IMG/VR virus record: IMGVR_UViG_3300018080_000025
Span: 1 to 55,118 of that record
DNA length: 55,118 nucleotides
Origin: a virus
Taxonomy: Duplodnaviria; Caudoviricetes
Reading direction: 5' to 3' (one strand)
The position numbers were made by a program, and so were the translations under genes. Of the stretch, positions 2,961 to 31,915 are shown in pieces (within the stretch, counting starts at the first letter, position 1; each line of letters begins with the position of its first letter). The notes under the pieces are model-generated. The model ran no database searches and was not told the DNA's origin. It saw only the letters and a program-made list of their open reading frames with translations.

Positions 2961-3065
2961 AAATGCAAACCTAGCATGGACTTCCATTATTGCAACGCAT
3001 GAATCCACAGGTGAACCCGTGTTTTCTGCTTGCACCCTGGGAAAACGTGTGGTATCCTTGCTTCC
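2961..3065. promoter_or_regulatory. Divergent promoter region (lysis/lysogeny switch)
   Basis: Rightward TTGCAC-17-TATCCT (3030-3058) and leftward TTGCAA-16-TAGGTT; each -10 ends 7 nt before an ATG. Confidence 0.55.
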
Positions 3066-3251
3066 ATGAGCGACGAAGCACCGAGAGTGAAGCAGGTCAC
3101 GCTTTCGCCCGAGTCCCACGCAGACCTAGAACGGCTTGCCGTGGAGGACCGGCGAACCCTGCGGGCGGAACTCGAATACCTTATCGACGAAGAAACCGAG
3201 CGCCGGTCCAAGCCCACCGCCGAACCGGCCGTCGAAATCGAATGCTCCTGA
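3066..3251 (+). CDS. Arc/CopG-like ribbon-helix-helix protein (Cro-equivalent)
   Basis: KQVTLSPESHADLERLAVEDRRTLRAELEYLI is a typical RHH pattern. Confidence 0.7.
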   Translation: MSDEAPRVKQVTLSPESHADLERLAVEDRRTLRAELEYLIDEETERRSKPTAEPAVEIECS

Positions 3252-3372
3252 CCCATGGACGATAATCCGTCGCAGGGAGGCGGGACAATGGTTTGGACAC
3301 ACCGAGAAACAACCACCCAGGAACATTTCGCGATTTTCAACCATGGTCGTTGTTTCGGCGGGCGAGGGGTCT

Positions 3373-3630
3373 ATGCGGCGAGGCTGGTCAGACAAGGATG
3401 CGGCCGTCGTGCTGGAGATCCGGCCCTCGAAGGTTTCCCAGTCGCTCGTGCCGGCGATTCGGAAGGTGGCGCGTCTAAGCCGAATCGACCCACTCCGCAC
3501 CCGGCTCATGATCGAAGAGGCCATGGAACAACTCGACCCCATGACAGACGAGGAGCTAGAACTGCTTCGCCGCCTCCAGACTGGCCGGCTGGATCGCGAC
3601 GAGCTTCACCCCAGGCGACGGAAAGCCTGA
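3373..3630 (+). CDS. Putative HTH transcriptional regulator
   Basis: GWSDKDAAVVLEIRPSKVSQ resembles a sigma region-4/HTH motif; GAGGGG RBS. Confidence 0.45.
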   Translation: MRRGWSDKDAAVVLEIRPSKVSQSLVPAIRKVARLSRIDPLRTRLMIEEAMEQLDPMTDEELELLRRLQTGRLDRDELHPRRRKA

Positions 3631-3645
3631 TGCAGGAAGGCAGGG

Positions 3646-4014
3646 ATGCCGGTGCCAGCACAAATTGACCCGATCGACGAGCTGCTAGCCTCCTTCAAGG
3701 ACGACGGGGCCGTCAAAAGGCGGGTCGAGGCGAGCGCCACGGCCCTGGCCGGCATGGACCCGCATCGGAGGCGGCAGATTCGAGCACGCATCGCTGAGAT
3801 GCCTCTTTCGTCGAGGTCGGCCTATCTGCGGGCGGTGGCCAAACAAGCCTCCCCTCGGCTGGCAATCAAGGCACACTGTATGGAGTGTTGCGGGTGGGGG
3901 CGGCGGGCTGTCGCGGAGTGTACCGGCTTCGCCTGCCCGCTCTGGGAGTACCGCCCGTTTCAGAGTTCGGCCGACAGCGAGGGCGACGAGGATGATGCGG
4001 AACACGCTGATTGA
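3646..4014 (+). CDS. Hypothetical phage protein with Cys cluster
   Basis: AIKAHCMECCG...CTGFACPLWEYRP zinc-binding-like motif. Confidence 0.65.
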   Translation: MPVPAQIDPIDELLASFKDDGAVKRRVEASATALAGMDPHRRRQIRARIAEMPLSSRSAYLRAVAKQASPRLAIKAHCMECCGWGRRAVAECTGFACPLWEYRPFQSSADSEGDEDDAEHAD

Positions 4015-4189
4015 CATCTTGCCACCGTCGATTGCCCTGGTCGCCTACCTGTTCGGATTCACGCTCCTGCACGGTGTCAGTGTTGCGATGAATCCTGAGT
4101 TGCAGCGAGTGGACTGGGGCGTGTGGCTGATCGCCGGTCTGCTGGTGATCGTGTTCTGGGGCTGTCTGAGAAGGTCTTGGCATCTCTAA
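3992..4189 (+). CDS. Small two-TM membrane protein
   Basis: Two hydrophobic segments in 65 aa. Confidence 0.55.
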   Translation: MMRNTLIDILPPSIALVAYLFGFTLLHGVSVAMNPELQRVDWGVWLIAGLLVIVFWGCLRRSWHL

Positions 4190-4205
4190 CGATGGAGGAT
4201 GGCTC

Positions 4206-4919
4206 ATGGAACTCTGGCACGGAATGGCTTTGAAACTGCGCTTCACGACGCCCATGTGTGGCGGGCGACCGCGCGACGATGAACTGGTCGAGCGCTGGTG
4301 CGAGCTTCGTAAGCCCAGTGACCCGGCCCATGCCCGGTTGAAAAGCGGGATCGGCCCGGATGGTCGCCGGCCGCGGTCGATGGCTGAGGTGGTCGAGCAG
4401 GTGGCGGCCACGACTGACGTTCTGCCCGACGAGGACCAGGACAGCGAACTGAGGAAAGTATGGGTCGGCTTTTCCAAGGACGACAACGGCCTTTTCGTAC
4501 CTGGCGGAAACCTCCGGGCGCATATCAAGGCGTGCGCGGAAACGCTCGGGCCGATCTTCAAGGCCGGCCATGTGGACGGCATGAAGGCCGTCATGAACTT
4601 CAAGAGCAAGATGACAAAGGTGTGCTACATCCAGGAGGACCGCATCTACCTGCTCAATGGCGATGGCCAACACGTTCAGGAGGCCACGGGCCACCGCGAT
4701 GCGACGATGCAGGTGATGACCGCCCTCGGACCAAGAACGTGCCTGAAGCGCGTGGATTTTGTTAATCCGTGCGCACTGGCGGCTACCGTAATGCTGCTAC
4801 AGGGCGGCGAGATCAACCGCGACCACTTGGTTGCCTGCCTGGAGTACGGCAAGCTCCAGGGTTTCAACCAGGACCGGTCGCTGGGCTTCGGCCGCTACGA
4901 CTACGAGCTGGGCGAATGA
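4206..4919 (+). CDS. Stand-alone RAMP (Cas7/Csm3-like RRM-fold) protein
   Basis: N-terminal strand LRFTTPMCGG, GLFVPGGNLRAHIK (matches the RAMP xIPGSSLKGxxR motif) and C-terminal Gly-rich loop GFNQDRSLGFGRY; GGAGG RBS; no other cas genes in the genome. Confidence 0.8.
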   Translation: MELWHGMALKLRFTTPMCGGRPRDDELVERWCELRKPSDPAHARLKSGIGPDGRRPRSMAEVVEQVAATTDVLPDEDQDSELRKVWVGFSKDDNGLFVPGGNLRAHIKACAETLGPIFKAGHVDGMKAVMNFKSKMTKVCYIQEDRIYLLNGDGQHVQEATGHRDATMQVMTALGPRTCLKRVDFVNPCALAATVMLLQGGEINRDHLVACLEYGKLQGFNQDRSLGFGRYDYELGE

Positions 4920-5071
4920 TCGGCGGATTGGGGTGGAGTGGCATGATCGGCGATGTGGATGGGGGTGCTGAGATGTGATCGGCGTGCTGACTTGTGGTGT
5001 GCTGACTTGTCGTGGTCGGCGACTTGGAATGGGGTGAGTTGGCCGGCGAGTTGGGGTGATATGGCGTGATC
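4917..5071 (+). repeat. 5-nt-periodic array (putative guide RNA locus of the RAMP)
   Basis: 29 pentamers NGNNN (22 begin TG); TGRYCGGCG anchors at 4917, 4944, 4976, 5013, 5040 and a partial TGATCG at 5067; unit lengths 27/32/37/27/27. Confidence 0.85.
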
Positions 5072-5648
5072 GTTCCAATGGTGGAGTGCCACAGATGACA
5101 CCTTGGAGATTGGTGCGAGGTTTGAATGTCCTGTCAACGACACCTACGGCGCACCCCTTCAGCTCTCGGTCGGCGTCGCTTCCGGCCGGGGGCTTGCATC
5201 ATCCTTCTGCGGCGCTTTGTCGCCGGCGAGAGTCGGCGGCAAGGCTTGGCCGGGCGCGCGGATCGGCCGCGCAAGTTGATCCGTGCGTTCCGGCCTCTGT
5301 ATGGGCTAAGCCGTGAGTGCCTGCTGTCCGGGTAGCAGGGCAGCAAAAACCGCGGATGTGATTTCTCCCTTGCTCCCGCGTCGGTGAGACTCCGGCGCGG
5401 GGGAATTGGCGCGGTCTTCCCACACACGCGCGAACTCGCAGCGGATTCGGGAGTGCAGCCCCCATAACCCGGTTGCAATGGGGGCCGTAGCCAGGAGCCA
5501 GCCTAGAGGCGCTGAAGACCGGGATGAAGCTGCGGGGCTGTCGGCGTAGGGCTCATGCGACTGTGATCGCGGCCTGACGATCGTCGGCAGTGAGTAGGAC
5601 CAGCGCCGGGTGATCTGGCAGCCCGGCGCCACTTTTGACAACCGAATT

Positions 5649-5761
5649 GCGACGGTGTGTGCACCGGACGGTGCATGCGGTGCTGCGCTGCCGGCGAGAT
5701 AGGACCGTAAAAGGTGGCCGGCCGGTGGTGGGGACCCGGGTGGGGAATCCGGGACCGTCGC
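5649..5761 (+). ncRNA. Candidate tRNA-like structured RNA
   Basis: GCGACGGT/ACCGTCGC closing stem, GCACC-GGAC-GGTGC 5' hairpin, T-arm-like CCCGGG-TGGGGAA-TCCGGG directly before the 3' strand. Confidence 0.4.
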
Positions 5762-5939
5762 GAGTTTTGTGGTGTGGACGCAAGCACTGATTCTCTCCCC
5801 CTCCCGTGGGCGCGGTGCATTCCAGTCGGTTCAGCCCGCGCCGCGCCCCGGAAAGTGACGCCCGCGGTGGACCGCGGAGCTTGAGCCCGGCGCCGGGCAT
5901 GATGCCGCAAGGCGCCGGGCCGGTTTGGAGCAAGTCGGA

Positions 5940-6809
5940 ATGCCGATCACCCCATGGCAACGCAAAAAGCGAAAGGAATCACTCGGCGGGTCCGACATGG
6001 CGGCATTGTTCGGATGTGATCCCTGGAAGACTGAGTATGACGTGTGGCTGGACAAGACCTTTCGCGTCGAGGACACACCTACTACGAAAGCCATGGAGGA
6101 AGGCAGTCTGTTTGAGCCTGTTGTCCTGGACTACGCCGAACGGCTGCATGGCCCCCTACTGCGGAATCAGCGACGCTCGGCCCCGAACCTCCCACTAGCC
6201 TCGAACATTGACGCCATCGTGCGGTCAGACGGTCTTCCGGTTGAAGCAAAGACCGTGCATTTCCAGTCTCCTGTTTTCGCCGAATATGGCGACGAAGGAA
6301 CCCACCAGGTTCCCGAGCACGTCGCGGTGCAGGCTCATGCCCATATGCTCTGCCTGCGTCTTAAGGTCGAACTCTGCCTGGTTCCGGTGCTGCTGGGTGG
6401 AACGCTGCGAGAGTACACGGTGCTCCTGAATCGCGAGCTGGCCGACATGATCGCCGACAAGGCCGACCGCTGGTGGCATGACCATGTGGTGTTGGATCAG
6501 GCGCCGGATGGAGTGCCCACGCTCGGGGTTATCCGCCGATTGAAACGCATCCAGGGCAAGCTCGCCGACATACCCGCCGAAGTCGTCGCGAAGTGGCAGA
6601 AGGCCAAAGAGGCCCGGAAACAGGCCGAAGAAACTGAGGAGCAATATGAGGCCGAGATGCTGGCCGCGCTCGGGGATGCCACGGTCGGCGACTACGGCGA
6701 CCCTGAGCGGCTGCTGGTGCTCCAGAGCGTTGATATGCCCGAAGGAACAAAGAAGGCCCACACACAAATCCGGAAATACCTGAAGAAGCGAGAAGGAGCC
6801 GAACTATGA
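5940..6809 (+). CDS. YqaJ-like viral recombinase (lambda-exonuclease family)
   Basis: RKESLGGSD, EGSLFEP, ASNIDA, VEAKT and QAHAHM motifs. Confidence 0.9.
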   Translation: MPITPWQRKKRKESLGGSDMAALFGCDPWKTEYDVWLDKTFRVEDTPTTKAMEEGSLFEPVVLDYAERLHGPLLRNQRRSAPNLPLASNIDAIVRSDGLPVEAKTVHFQSPVFAEYGDEGTHQVPEHVAVQAHAHMLCLRLKVELCLVPVLLGGTLREYTVLLNRELADMIADKADRWWHDHVVLDQAPDGVPTLGVIRRLKRIQGKLADIPAEVVAKWQKAKEARKQAEETEEQYEAEMLAALGDATVGDYGDPERLLVLQSVDMPEGTKKAHTQIRKYLKKREGAEL

Positions 6810-10934: not shown

Positions 10935-11228
10935 ATGAAATGCCAACGGTGCGGAGCTTGTTGCCGCACGCTACTCGTCGAGTGCGATTACGATGACTGC
11001 GTCCGTGAGCCGAGGCTGCTTAAGCCATCCACCAATCCGCACGGCCTATCGCTGGCGGATTTAGAAGGCGGCGAGAAGTGCATCAAGCTCTGGCGCTGTC
11101 GTTTTCTTGGCCCAGACAACCTGTGCACGATCTACGCAACGCGACCGCAGGAATGCCGCGATTTTGAGCCTGGCAACCCGAAATGCCTAGAAGCCCGCGA
11201 AGAATGCCACACGGGAGATATGCCATGA
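10935..11228 (+). CDS. YkgJ-family Zn/Fe-chelating cysteine-cluster protein
   Basis: CQRCGACC...CRFL...[14 protein letters not shown]. Confidence 0.85.
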
Positions 11229-11809
11229 CACCCGACGAACTAAAAACCGTGCTCGCAGAACATGGAAAGTGGCTGCGCGGTGATGGTGGAAAACAGGCGG
11301 ATCTCCGCAGGGCGTATCTCCACGGGGCGGATCTCAGCGGGGCGAATCTCCGCGGGGCGAATCTCATCGAGGCGTATCTCAGCGGGGCGGATCTCATCGA
11401 GGCGAATCTCATCGGGGCGAATCTCAGCGGGGCGAATCTCAGCGGGGCGAATCTCAGCGGGGCGGATCTCCGCGGGGCGAATCTCAGCGGGGCGAATCTC
11501 AGCGGGGCGGATCTCCGCGGGGCGGATCTCAGCGGGGCGTATCTCAGCAGGGCGGATCTCAGCAGGGCCACGCTTAACTGGGACTCCCACGATCTGCTGG
11601 CTGAGATACTGCGACAGGCGGCCGGCGACGATATAGCCAAGCGCAAGCTGGCCGGACTCGTGCTGGTGGGTCGCGATTGGTGCTGGGACGATTTTCTCGC
11701 GTTAGATGATCCGCTGCGTGATTGGGCGCTTGATACGCTGGCGGTATACGCGACACCTGATGACGACGCGCCGGACGAAATACAGAAGCGAGCGGGAGGT
11801 GCGACGTGA
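11225..11809 (+). CDS. Pentapeptide-repeat protein
   Basis: About 19 A(D/N/Y)LxG repeats after LAEHGKWL; 15-bp DNA tandem repeats. Confidence 0.92.
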
Positions 11810-26149: not shown

Positions 26150-26445
26150 TGGATTGTGCTCCCGAAACGGGATAGGATGGTAGCGTCGATGGGTCACACC
26201 CCATCGGCCGCGCCCCGCGGCAACCCGCATTGCCGGCGGGGTTTTTTCGCCAGTGATACCCTACCACAGAATCGCCGATGGGGCAAGTACGTTCCCCCGG
26301 ATTCGGGCGGAAAAATACGTAACCTGCTGTGACACAACACGTTAGGCGCGCAAGAAAATCTACTTTTTTTTGGGGCGATACCGATCCGAGGTACATGCGC
26401 ACTTGCCCCGCGTTCCCGCCTATGCGCGCGCAGCCTACCCTAATT

Positions 26446-26870
26446 TGGGTAATAGTACCCACTGGGTAATAGTACCCAGAATTGGGTAATGGGTAATTTG
26501 GCAGAGTCTTGCCGATATTGTCGAGATCCTGACAACGGGTTCGGCGCGTCCGTCGATGCCATTTACGATTATGCGGTCTGGGTAAGATAGGTAAGATTCG
26601 GGCTGGCGGGTGGAATTGGGGTGGAATTGGGGCGGAATTACGGAATTGGCGCGAGACTTGGGGGCGGATGGGGCGTTTGGTGTCCCTCGTGGCCGGCGGT
26701 GCTGGCGGGGGCGCCAGAGGGGATCGGGGCAAGTCGGGGGCGGGGCATGTGGAGTACACTCCAAAAGCCCCCTTCGGGTCGGTCGCCAGGAGCGAGCGCG
26801 CCCGCCTGGGATGGGGAGATTGGCTATCGAGGCGGATTCCGGGCGGATTCCGGGCGGTTTCCGGCCGCTG
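26446..26870. repeat. Cluster of short repeats in a large intergenic region
   Basis: TGGGTAATAGTACCCA x2, GGAATT x4, GGCGG(A/T)TTCCG x3. Confidence 0.75.
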
Positions 26871-27394
26871 CCGGCCGGCGGTTGCGGCCGCTCGGACGGC
26901 TAGGCCGGCGGTGTCACGGGTTGCCGCGGGAGGCGCATAATGCCCGCGGCGGCCGGGGGCCACGGACCCCGGCGATTCTCCTGAAAATCAGGAATCCTAC
27001 CCCCTTTTGAAATTGTTCATTCTGCGCTTCGGCTGGTTTTTCGGACGTATGGTGTGCGTCGGTGGGGCAATAGTGTAGTGAAAGTGCGCACTTTCAATCG
27101 GCGGCCAGGAATTCCGCCAGCTCTCGCCCATTTGTCGGTCAACCGCACGCAACCTTCCCCCCTCTCATACTCTCCCCCCTTCTTGGGTGGGTGCGCAGAA
27201 ACCACGCTTCGTTCGCCCGAGACTGATTTCGGGGGTATCTTGGGTCGGCCCAGGTGATTTGAGGGCCGTGGCGCGCGGAGGAGGCATGGTTTTGGTGGGG
27301 TCTACGGATTTCCTCGGGCTGTCGGGATGTTTCCAAACTCGGTTTCCGGGCGCATAGTCGTACCGATTTGGTGCTGTTTCGGTTTTGCGACGTG

Positions 27395-27410
27395 TGTTTC
27401 ACGTGAAACG
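27395..27410. promoter_or_regulatory. parS-like palindrome
   Basis: TGTTTCACGTGAAACG, 15/16 match to the bacterial parS consensus TGTTTCACGTGAAACA. Confidence 0.7.
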
Positions 27411-27478
27411 CAGGTCTTGTGTCTGTGGCGTCGGTGGCCTAGGATGTTGTGGGTGGGGGTCTGTGGTGGAGGACGACC

Positions 27479-29884: not shown

Positions 29885-31915
29885 ATGATGCTGAGCCGAC
29901 GACAGAGCGCCGACCTCGACCTGCCGCACCTGGCGGCGTGGCTTCCGGAGGAATACTTCGATATGCCGGAAGATCAGCGGCGCATTGCCGAGCGCGCAGC
30001 CACGCTTCAGGCGGCCCACCTGCCCCCCGATTACGACGGCCTGGATGAAGAGGCCCGGCTCGAGGCCCGAAAGTCGGTCCTGTCGTCATGGTTCGACCCG
30101 GATCGGATTAACGTCCTCTGCACGGACGTAGAGAATCTGATTGCGGCGCACTTCCTTTGGGTCGAGTTCTACCTGAAGCCGGACGCCTACAGCGGGGGTG
30201 ACTATTTCTTCCGGGACCCGATCACGAAGTACGACCTTGTTCGGGCGGCGATGTCGCCACCGAAACTGGAGGGTCATCCCGCAAAGACGGTCATCCACTG
30301 CCCAAGGCACACAACCAAGACGAAGACCCTCATTCACGAAATGTGTTCGATGATGGTCGTGATGCGCCCGCACACCAAGATCCTCGTGAGCGAGGTGAAC
30401 AAGGATCGGAGCACGGAGGAGCTTCAGGCAATCCGCTTCACGCTCCAGAACAATGAACTGATCGCCCGCGACTTCGGCGGACTCGGGACACTTTACTGCA
30501 CGAGCTACAAATCCGGGATGAAGTGGAACGATTCGCGCCTGGACATCGCCCTCCATCCCCACACGTCGATCATGGCATTCAGCACGAAATCGAAGCAGCG
30601 TGGGCGTCACCCCATTCTGGGCATCATCGACGACCCGGAGGATGACGAGACCGCGCAGGATCAGACCTTCAGGCGGAAGTTCTTCACCAACCTGTTCCGC
30701 CGCTACATGGGCATGTTCTACCCAGGCGCCCACATCATCTGGATCGGGACGGTGATGCGGGCATCCTGTCTGCAAATCGCCCTGGCCGACCTGATCGACG
30801 TGGACCCCGACAGCCGCAGCGACGTGGAAGAGTACGACGCGCGTTTCAAGGACTGGAACAAGGTCCACTTCCCCATGATCGAGCGCGACCCGGCGACGGG
30901 CGAGCGTTACAGCATCATGCAGGACCAGACCTCGGTACGAGCCTATGACGAGAAGCACGAGACGATGGGCGCGGCGGTCGTCGCCTCGGAGCTGGACGGC
31001 AAGCCGGTTGCCGAGGGCCAATTCGCACTTGTCCGTGATCCGGTTTGGCACGGCTACATGCACTGCCGGCGCATGGATAATGCGCCCGGTCTGCCGGAAG
31101 AATACCTGCTGGATCTCTGCAACGGGCAGATCATGGAATGGCGACAGTGGTTGACGACGGTGCAGGTCGTTGCAGGTTGCGACATCGCGGATTCGACGGC
31201 CATTGACGCTGATTTCGGCGCCAACGCGCTGGTGGGAATCGACCCTTACGGGACGGTCTTCGTCCTCGACATCTACGTCAAGCGCATGATCGCCGACGAT
31301 TGGCCGGAGAAAGCGCTGGGCATGGCATTCGAGTGGGGCGCGGTCCGCCAGGCATTCGATACCGCGGCCATGCAAAAGGTCGTGTTCCGTATGGCCGAAC
31401 GGCTTCGGATGTTGGCAGAGGAACGCGGCCATTCGCCACCAACACTCGTCGCCCTCGGGAACACGGCCCAGCGCAACAAGCATTTGAAGATTTTGAGTTC
31501 ACTCCGGCCACTCCACCGCAAGGAATTGATCCGCTATCCCTTCTTCAAGTCGATTCGCACGGATGATGGAAGGACGCACCATCCCTTCCCGCATTCCCAC
31601 GAGGGCAGTTTCCGGGAACTGTACCGGGAGATCGACACGTATACGGACGAGGGGGCCAGCGGACACGACGACGCGATCGACGCGCTCCAGATGGCGATCC
31701 ATATCGGGGCGAGGCTGAGGGGCGAGCCCCTGAAAGAGTACGACGAGAACGAGGCGGAACTGAAGAAGTGGGAAGAGGCCGGCGTGGACTGGCGCGCGCG
31801 GCGCCATCTGATCCCCTATGAGGCGTGGACGGACGATATGAAAGCTGACGCGGATTCGGATGATCCGGAGCTGGTCGGCGTTGCCGACGAGGTGGACCCG
31901 TATGCCTTTTGCTGA
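29885..31915 (+). CDS. terL: Terminase large subunit
   Basis: PRHTTKT Walker A variant, RGRHP...IIDDPED, WIGT, nuclease GCDIA and HDDAIDAL. Confidence 0.88.
   Translation: MMLSRRQSADLDLPHLAAWLPEEYFDMPEDQRRIAERAATLQAAHLPPDYDGLDEEARLEARKSVLSSWFDPDRINVLCTDVENLIAAHFLWVEFYLKPDAYSGGDYFFRDPITKYDLVRAAMSPPKLEGHPAKTVIHCPRHTTKTKTLIHEMCSMMVVMRPHTKILVSEVNKDRSTEELQAIRFTLQNNELIARDFGGLGTLYCTSYKSGMKWNDSRLDIALHPHTSIMAFSTKSKQRGRHPILGIIDDPEDDETAQDQTFRRKFFTNLFRRYMGMFYPGAHIIWIGTVMRASCLQIALADLIDVDPDSRSDVEEYDARFKDWNKVHFPMIERDPATGERYSIMQDQTSVRAYDEKHETMGAAVVASELDGKPVAEGQFALVRDPVWHGYMHCRRMDNAPGLPEEYLLDLCNGQIMEWRQWLTTVQVVAGCDIADSTAIDADFGANALVGIDPYGTVFVLDIYVKRMIADDWPEKALGMAFEWGAVRQAFDTAAMQKVVFRMAERLRMLAEERGHSPPTLVALGNTAQRNKHLKILSSLRPLHRKELIRYPFFKSIRTDDGRTHHPFPHSHEGSFRELYREIDTYTDEGASGHDDAIDALQMAIHIGARLRGEPLKEYDENEAELKKWEEAGVDWRARRHLIPYEAWTDDMKADADSDDPELVGVADEVDPYAFC

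Follow-up and report, generated by a model that had tools for sequence, protein, structure and literature searches.

VIPR, first described in 2026, is a CRISPR-related, RNA-guided DNA silencer that is mostly phage-borne and consists of a small single-RRM RAMP protein with a glycine-rich loop and a thumb (Vipr) and its vrRNAs (10.64898/2026.04.26.720920). The discovery preprint describes a vrRNA as a run of 9–16 YNNGG pentamers with a conserved tail, GGY being constant and NN hypervariable; pairing with double-stranded DNA is through the NN bases and skips every third target base, and the natural targets are competing phages and prophages. The system of Escherichia phage SUSP1 targets DNA via these variable bases (10.64898/2026.04.26.720920). 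Seven VIPR types are given in the same source, one of them characterized and some with `a related consensus'; alternative repeats are named (NNNGG, YNNNG and NNNNG), `staggered' arrays are mentioned in which the end of one vrRNA is the start of the next, and the locus is said to comprise `typically' two genes, with an accessory gene, vap (10.64898/2026.04.26.720920). Cryo-EM reveals a helical filament with one protomer per pentamer, in which the anchor guanines are held by H17, D177, R138 and W178 of SUSP1 Vipr, D177 and W178 contacting the two anchor guanines, and a pyrimidine pocket is formed with R179 (10.64898/2026.04.26.720927).

The DNA analysed here, referred to as the window, is a complete virus record of 55,118 bp with 61.6% G+C. 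The fold and homology of a 237-residue protein, the location of its gene and the logic of the array that adjoins it point to a VIPR locus: the array at 4917–5071 is very probably the guide-RNA (vrRNA) array of a phage VIPR system and, taken jointly with this reading, its carrier a temperate high-GC phage. As in VIPR type II (SUSP1), a lone small RAMP is phage-borne, arrays of 5-nt repeats with a fixed anchor and hypervariable bases adjoin the gene on its own strand, and there is no CRISPR-like array and no cas gene among the genes scanned. The differences are equally clear. The canonical GGY/NN motif (YNNGG) is not found in the window family, which is built on TG + NNN, so that the anchor is U-G with three variable bases rather than the G-G-Y with two of SUSP1; the units hold 3–7 pentamers rather than 9–16 and carry an unstructured junction of 8–9 nt rather than a pseudoknotted 3' tail; the protein has 237 residues rather than 195; and the cassette is without a vap gene.

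The VIPR variants named in the discovery preprint resemble the window in having at least three variable positions per pentamer and densely abutting units with nothing between them (10.64898/2026.04.26.720920). NNNTG or NNNYG has 0 occurrences in the text of that preprint, its Fig. S17/S18 and data S4 aside. A member of the family of the 237-residue protein is present in NCBI nr (P0018) and the supplement types six other classes; thus, the UG-anchored clade may already be typed. Read in this way, the window and about 55 related loci document a broad VIPR branch anchored on UG, with three bases free at each step and units that are short and punctuated.

The RAMP gene and its protein

The vipr-like gene is a 237-codon open reading frame on the plus strand (4206–4919; GC3 0.79), and its TGA stop codon (4917–4919) is at the same time the first three bases of the array and of the first TGATCGGCG word. 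Pfam and PHROG searches with the 237-residue protein produced no match, nor did tblastn against GenBank phages; Pfam searches with all 44 family members gave nothing below an E-value of 0.008, and a sequence profile searched against PDB sequences gave nothing meaningful (best E-value 0.14). A search of 5.8 billion proteins returned 44 relatives including the protein itself (43–100% identity), none with a Pfam domain, and a profile search of 1.84 billion representatives returned 1,248 proteins at E ≤ 1e-3 (505 at E ≤ 1e-10), a set that may reach beyond the UG-anchored branch. The ESM Atlas clusters closest to the protein consist almost entirely of viral sequences.

An AF2 model built from the 44-sequence alignment (pLDDT 88.4, pTM 0.83) was compared with the PDB using Foldseek, which produced 49 matches at E ≤ 1e-3, the best being 8z4l_F (E-value 3.9e-6, TM-score 0.40/0.48). 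The 40 of these 49 matches listed are all chains of type III, IV, VII or III-E CRISPR effector complexes, including type VII Cas7, Csm3, Cmr, Cas7-11 and Csf2, with modest TM-scores to Cas7 chains of 0.27–0.46. The top match in the viral structure library BFVD is annotated as a `Cas system-associated RAMP superfamily protein' (E-value 1.7e-11, TM-score 0.58/0.69). The protein is predicted on the basis of this model to fold as a Cas7-like RAMP, and fold and profile homology together assign it as a single-RRM member.

A model of three copies of the protein in complex scored 0.42 against 0.13 for the best of three controls, with contacts agreeing to at least 23% among three runs, a partner pLDDT of at least 68 and a head-to-tail interface. 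When this procedure was calibrated, 20 of 30 proteins with structures solved as pairs passed the mark, as did 1 of 23 solved as single chains; these counts are only rough for the present protein given that three copies and a custom alignment were used. The modelled complex lends support to self-association, and the predictor's memory of solved Cas7 filaments may account for its pass.

The SUSP1 locus was located in KT454805 as two minus-strand genes with GGY-phased arrays on the flanks, and its 195-residue Vipr protein has 529 relatives at E ≤ 1e-3, of which 40 were aligned. Comparison of the 44-sequence family with these 40 relatives using hhalign gave Prob 91.8% and an E-value of 7.5e-7 over 157 columns; the family profile against the single SUSP1 sequence aligned the C-terminal 40 columns only (Prob 4%). 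Judged by the profile-to-profile comparison, the 237-residue protein appears to be a distant homologue of SUSP1 Vipr. In that comparison the C-terminal G-rich motif GFNQDRSLGFGRY is matched with the G-loop of SUSP1, which sets D177-W178-R179 of SUSP1 opposite Q222-D223-R224, three residues that are invariant in the family of the 237-residue protein. The arginine is conserved, and the two residues that in SUSP1 contact the anchor guanines differ; in this alignment the changed G-loop residues would fit a change of the anchor from GG to UG.

The array in the window and in its relatives

The array (4917–5071, plus strand) comprises five units, each consisting of a TGRYCGGCG junction, RNN and then three to five TGNNN pentamers. 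The junction word is TGATCGGCG at 4917–4925, where it overlaps the stop codon, at 4944–4952 and at 4976–4984, TGGTCGGCG at 5013–5021 and TGGCCGGCG at 5040–5048, and a partial closing junction, TGATCG, lies at 5067–5072, all on the plus strand. The parse and coordinates of 4917–5071 put forward in the earlier note proved exact: the junction starts (4917, 4944, 4976, 5013 and 5040) reproduce its unit lengths of 27, 32, 37, 27 and 27 nt, and removal of the GG behind each TGRYC anchor leaves the 29 pentamers that it counted, with G at position 2 in all 29 and T at position 1 in 22. Its list of dinucleotides at positions 4–5 likewise agrees with the re-parsed array. The purine bias at position 3 that it described is present here (24 of 29 pentamers) but is local to the window array, as position 3 pooled over seven related arrays reads G 70, T 71, A 45 and C 32 (n = 218); similarly, positions 4–5 vary as it held, but family-wide three positions per pentamer vary and not two.

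The five-base pattern of the array exceeds chance. It contains 16 pairs of TG exactly 5 nt apart, whereas 5000 dinucleotide-preserving shuffles averaged 5.1 such pairs and never exceeded 12, so that none reached 16. Runs of at least four in-phase TG number four on the plus strand of the 55-kb genome, all at 4929–5068, and one on the minus strand, against a mean of 1.24 for both strands together in block-shuffled genomes. Runs phased on G alone are unspecific in a genome this rich in GC (36 and 23 on the two strands), and the TG-phase statistic was therefore used instead. The array RNA has no significant predicted structure (z = −0.47), as expected for a single strand held by protein.

Close relatives of the locus number 14, namely the window, a homologue 53% identical in protein that lies in a Phycisphaerales MAG chromosome (L126) and 12 metagenome contigs (L127–L138). 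An array on the strand of the gene is found in ten of the 14, downstream of it in eight and upstream in two, with the grammar TGATCGGCG + (NNNTG)k. This grammar stands directly 3' of the gene on the same strand in L126, L127, L129, L132, L133 and L135; in L138 an array with a variant junction word holds that position, and in L130 and L131 the array is directly upstream. The four loci without a readable array are two contigs that end at the gene (L128 and L136), one that begins inside it (L137) and one of 1.1 kb (L134). The stop codon overlaps the first junction in six loci (L126, L127, L129, L132, L133 and the window). Behind the array of L126 there is a run of N (4924–5042).

The seven downstream arrays that were pooled contain 63 junctions, and 53 of 56 units have lengths of 2 mod 5 (mostly 27, 32 and 37 nt), with 3–7 pentamers and 22–47 nt per unit. 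Pentamers start with TG in 184 of 218 cases; position 1 is a pyrimidine in 209 (T 186, C 23) and position 2 is G in 212, and positions 3–5 are near-uniform, with 61 of the 64 triplets used. Different loci have no units in common beyond chance (eight pairs with two consecutive triplets, against 14.4 in shuffles), and the variable bases are fully turned over between relatives whose proteins are 43–57% identical. Within the array of L131 there are duplicated units, three pairs having 3–5 consecutive triplets in common against 0.05 expected. The selection on register claimed in the earlier note is thus borne out by the conservation of the junction word and TG phase at this level of protein identity and by the constancy of unit length. 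The comparison of arrays across relatives that it proposed as a check yielded arrays neither identical nor decayed, with anchor and phase conserved while the content turns over, which is the opposite of a decaying microsatellite.

A junction precedes the first pentamer tract in nine of nine arrays, and the last tract has no junction after it in L127, L130 and L131; it is therefore simpler to regard the junction as a 5' element of the unit. No neighbouring ORF is common to the close loci at E < 1e-6. In L129 (2902–5010) and L135 (from about 5200) an ORF that is terminase-large-like by eye stands immediately after the array, and the terminase large subunit of the window (29885–31915) is 25 kb from its array, so that the cassette occurs in different genome neighbourhoods.

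An alignment of the distant family led to 43 IMG/VR loci with 23–34% identity, 35 of which have at least three TG-phase runs on the strand of the gene; summed over these loci, such runs number 267 on the gene strand and six on the other. In L151, L159 and L164 the same (NNNTG)k units are discernible by eye, with junction words that end in CGAG (e.g. TAGCCGAG and GTCGCCGAG). About 320–400 nt separate the RAMP gene from the array in L163, L166, L167, L169, L170 and L177, which is room enough for a small accessory gene.

Other routes to related loci were less productive. Searches of IMG/VR proteins with the single protein or the close-family alignment confirmed no related locus, the neighbouring YqaJ gene led to nothing, and the neighbouring phrog_3657 gene led to five loci, one of which (L002) is low in GC and has no similar intergenic sequence. 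A blastn search of 4901–5950 against the loci gathered at that stage gave no match. Scanning the collection for two TGATCGGCG words 15–40 nt apart returned 119 stretches; the clusters of at least three junction words that were inspected are glycine- or pentapeptide-type coding repeats or are without pentamer phase.

The gene and the array form one insertion/deletion cassette (4162–5118, comprising the gene, the array and 47 nt), since a near-identical phage is without exactly this segment and has 56 other bases in its place. The metagenome runs X2 and X3 each contain one 528-nt contig that covers 3907–4161 and 5119–5334 and skips 957 nt, with nine other letters in the first part and four other letters and one gap in the second (about 96–98% identity to the window); being of the same length, the two contigs may represent a single observation. 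A 155-nt contig identical to 4476–4630 indicates that the gene-bearing form is also present in those metagenomes. The cassette holds one gene only, and its presence or absence between near-identical phages is as expected of an inter-phage weapon.

Proposed function and alternative readings

Since the first junction is formed by the gene's own stop codon, the layout suggests that the array is co-transcribed with the vipr-like gene. The transcript would be punctuated by the 8–9-nt word GAUCGGCG into five short units of 27–37 nt, of each of which, to judge from the anatomy of the array, this word is most likely the 5' element. By homology with SUSP1, protomers of the 237-residue RAMP would line up head to tail on the RNA, one per pentamer, holding the conserved U-G of each pentamer and displaying its variable bases, which could then pair non-contiguously with the double-stranded DNA of a rival phage or prophage and so recognize and silence it. 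The short guides already suggested in the earlier note fit both the Vipr-type RAMP neighbour and the published pentamer-repeat guides; their processing at the junctions into five separate RNAs stands as a prediction.

Targets were sought under rules of contiguous pairing and of 1-, 2- and 3-nt skips on triplets or dinucleotides. For 50 units under eight rules in 1.29 Mb the best-hit distributions equal those of shuffled guides, and 181 guides under six rules in 1.50 Mb showed no enrichment over shuffled guides, both in a database too small for the result to count against targeting. Perfect 15/15 matches under the 2-skip rule number three, against one in controls, in the 1.29–1.50 Mb searched.

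The absence of a target under any rule in these 1.3–1.5 Mb could also indicate that the RAMP protein coats the array RNA as a decoy, sponge or scaffold and not as a DNA-targeting guide, for instance to titrate a host RNA-binding defence or to regulate the phage's own genes, with the variable bases free because they are not read. The shortness of the units, with only 12–18 variable bases each, and the lack of an accessory gene accord with such a role. However, the searched sequence is far too small for targets to be expected, bases that are not read should drift in length too, whereas 53 of 56 units keep both the 5-nt register and their length, and the homologous SUSP1 system targets DNA through its variable bases (10.64898/2026.04.26.720920); a decoy therefore appears improbable. 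It is less probable still that the array acts as double-stranded DNA, with TGATCGGCG serving as an iteron or being bound by a replication, partition or packaging protein and the TG phase shaping DNA flexibility. The words are 27–37 bp apart, as iterons might be, the array heads a 1-kb non-coding gap before recombination and replication genes, and the arrays of L129 and L135 abut the terminase-large-like ORF recognized by eye. Nevertheless, a near-identical phage does without the whole cassette, which can thus be no essential origin or packaging site, and the genomic context varies between loci with the RAMP gene alone constant. The spacings also step by 5 bp and not by helical turns, the pentamer phase persists across clades that differ in their junction word, and strand asymmetry is strict, the array being co-oriented with the RAMP gene in all ten close arrays and in 267 against six of the distant runs.

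That the array is functionless, being a decayed microsatellite, a compositional accident or part of a coding frame, is scarcely credible. A minus-strand ORF of 80 residues does span it (4901–5143) and TRF detects only weak periods of 15 and 19 nt, but this ORF owes its openness to the scarcity of A and C on the plus strand, no reading frame survives unit lengths of 27, 32 and 37 nt, shuffles never match the observed phase, and the register is conserved at about 50% protein identity with the variable bases completely turned over. Further candidates were dropped as leaving the link with the RAMP gene and the conserved phase unexplained, namely a Rho-loading site on the minus strand, Chi-like or telomere-like GT repeats, a type III antitoxin RNA and a P1-type pac site with TGATCR hexamers. 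The vrRNA array of a VIPR system accordingly remains the preferred reading.

The crRNAs of type III CRISPR systems have an 8-nt repeat-derived 5' tag and lengths that differ in 6-nt steps. The window system resembles class 1 CRISPR, in which Cas7 proteins (Csm3, Cmr4 and Csf2) assemble on crRNA, in the predicted fold of its protein, in what would be one protomer per fixed RNA step, and in a short conserved word at the unit boundary with unit lengths differing by whole steps. Unlike class 1 CRISPR, its step is 5 nt and not 6, its repeat is 9 nt and not 23 nt or more, and its array units are constrained by the TG-phased anchor, some being duplicated within an array. The class 1 CRISPR–Cas combination of repeats of about 23–50 nt, unconstrained spacers and adaptation genes is not found at the window, and no cas1, cas2, cas5, cas6 or cas10 is present among the genes scanned.

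A more speculative extension of the vrRNA reading, which we consider rather unlikely, is that the UG branch reads DNA by another code, in which all three variable bases pair, as contiguous triplets or with a different skip, and in which each short unit has a linear 5' handle of 8 nt and the protomer count fixes its length in 5-nt steps. If this were true, the UG branch would stand structurally between VIPR guides and the crRNAs of class 1 CRISPR with their tag-plus-ruler design, and a different decoding rule would amount to a second code for programmable DNA recognition.

Surroundings of the cassette and other features of the window

Scanning 20 of about 68 ORFs of the window against protein families identified an integrase, a serine recombinase, a terminase large subunit and a portal protein, and no cas gene among these 20. 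TRF found no CRISPR-like repeat in the window, no tRNA was found and Rfam gave 0 matches at gathering thresholds. DNA similarity searches of 4200–6200 against GenBank phages gave no match. A scan of 3000–6200 produced 0 promoter-like sites and three terminator-like sites, against 2.3 expected, none of which flanks the array and none of which is convincing around the module.

A non-coding gap extends 3' of the array to 5924, beyond which lie a YqaJ-type exonuclease, a phrog_3657 protein, an O-like replication initiator and a RuvC-like resolvase. The remainder of this gap behind the cassette (5119–5924), in which Rfam found nothing, is conserved in the cassette-less phage, the contigs of which cover 5119–5779; it therefore belongs to the downstream recombination/replication region and not to the VIPR module. 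Two genes upstream of the RAMP gene, a 122-residue ORF (3646–4014) shows a weak match with a small-terminase PHROG (E-value 0.0019), far from the terminase large subunit, and is kept in the cassette-less variant.

Elsewhere in the window, TRF detects 18 copies of a 15-nt unit (11296–11568) inside a 208-residue ORF (11183–11809) that translates to a pentapeptide-repeat protein; a phage-borne protein of this kind might mimic DNA. A non-coding gap of 1.2 kb (26230–27449), with a minus-strand ATPase gene on one side and plus-strand genes on the other, contains two copies of the 17-nt word TGGGTAATAGTACCCAC, with an inverted repeat inside, as well as three copies each of GGGTGGAATTG and GGCGGATTCCG; with a second G+T-rich patch near 27361–27470, it looks like a regulatory or origin region.
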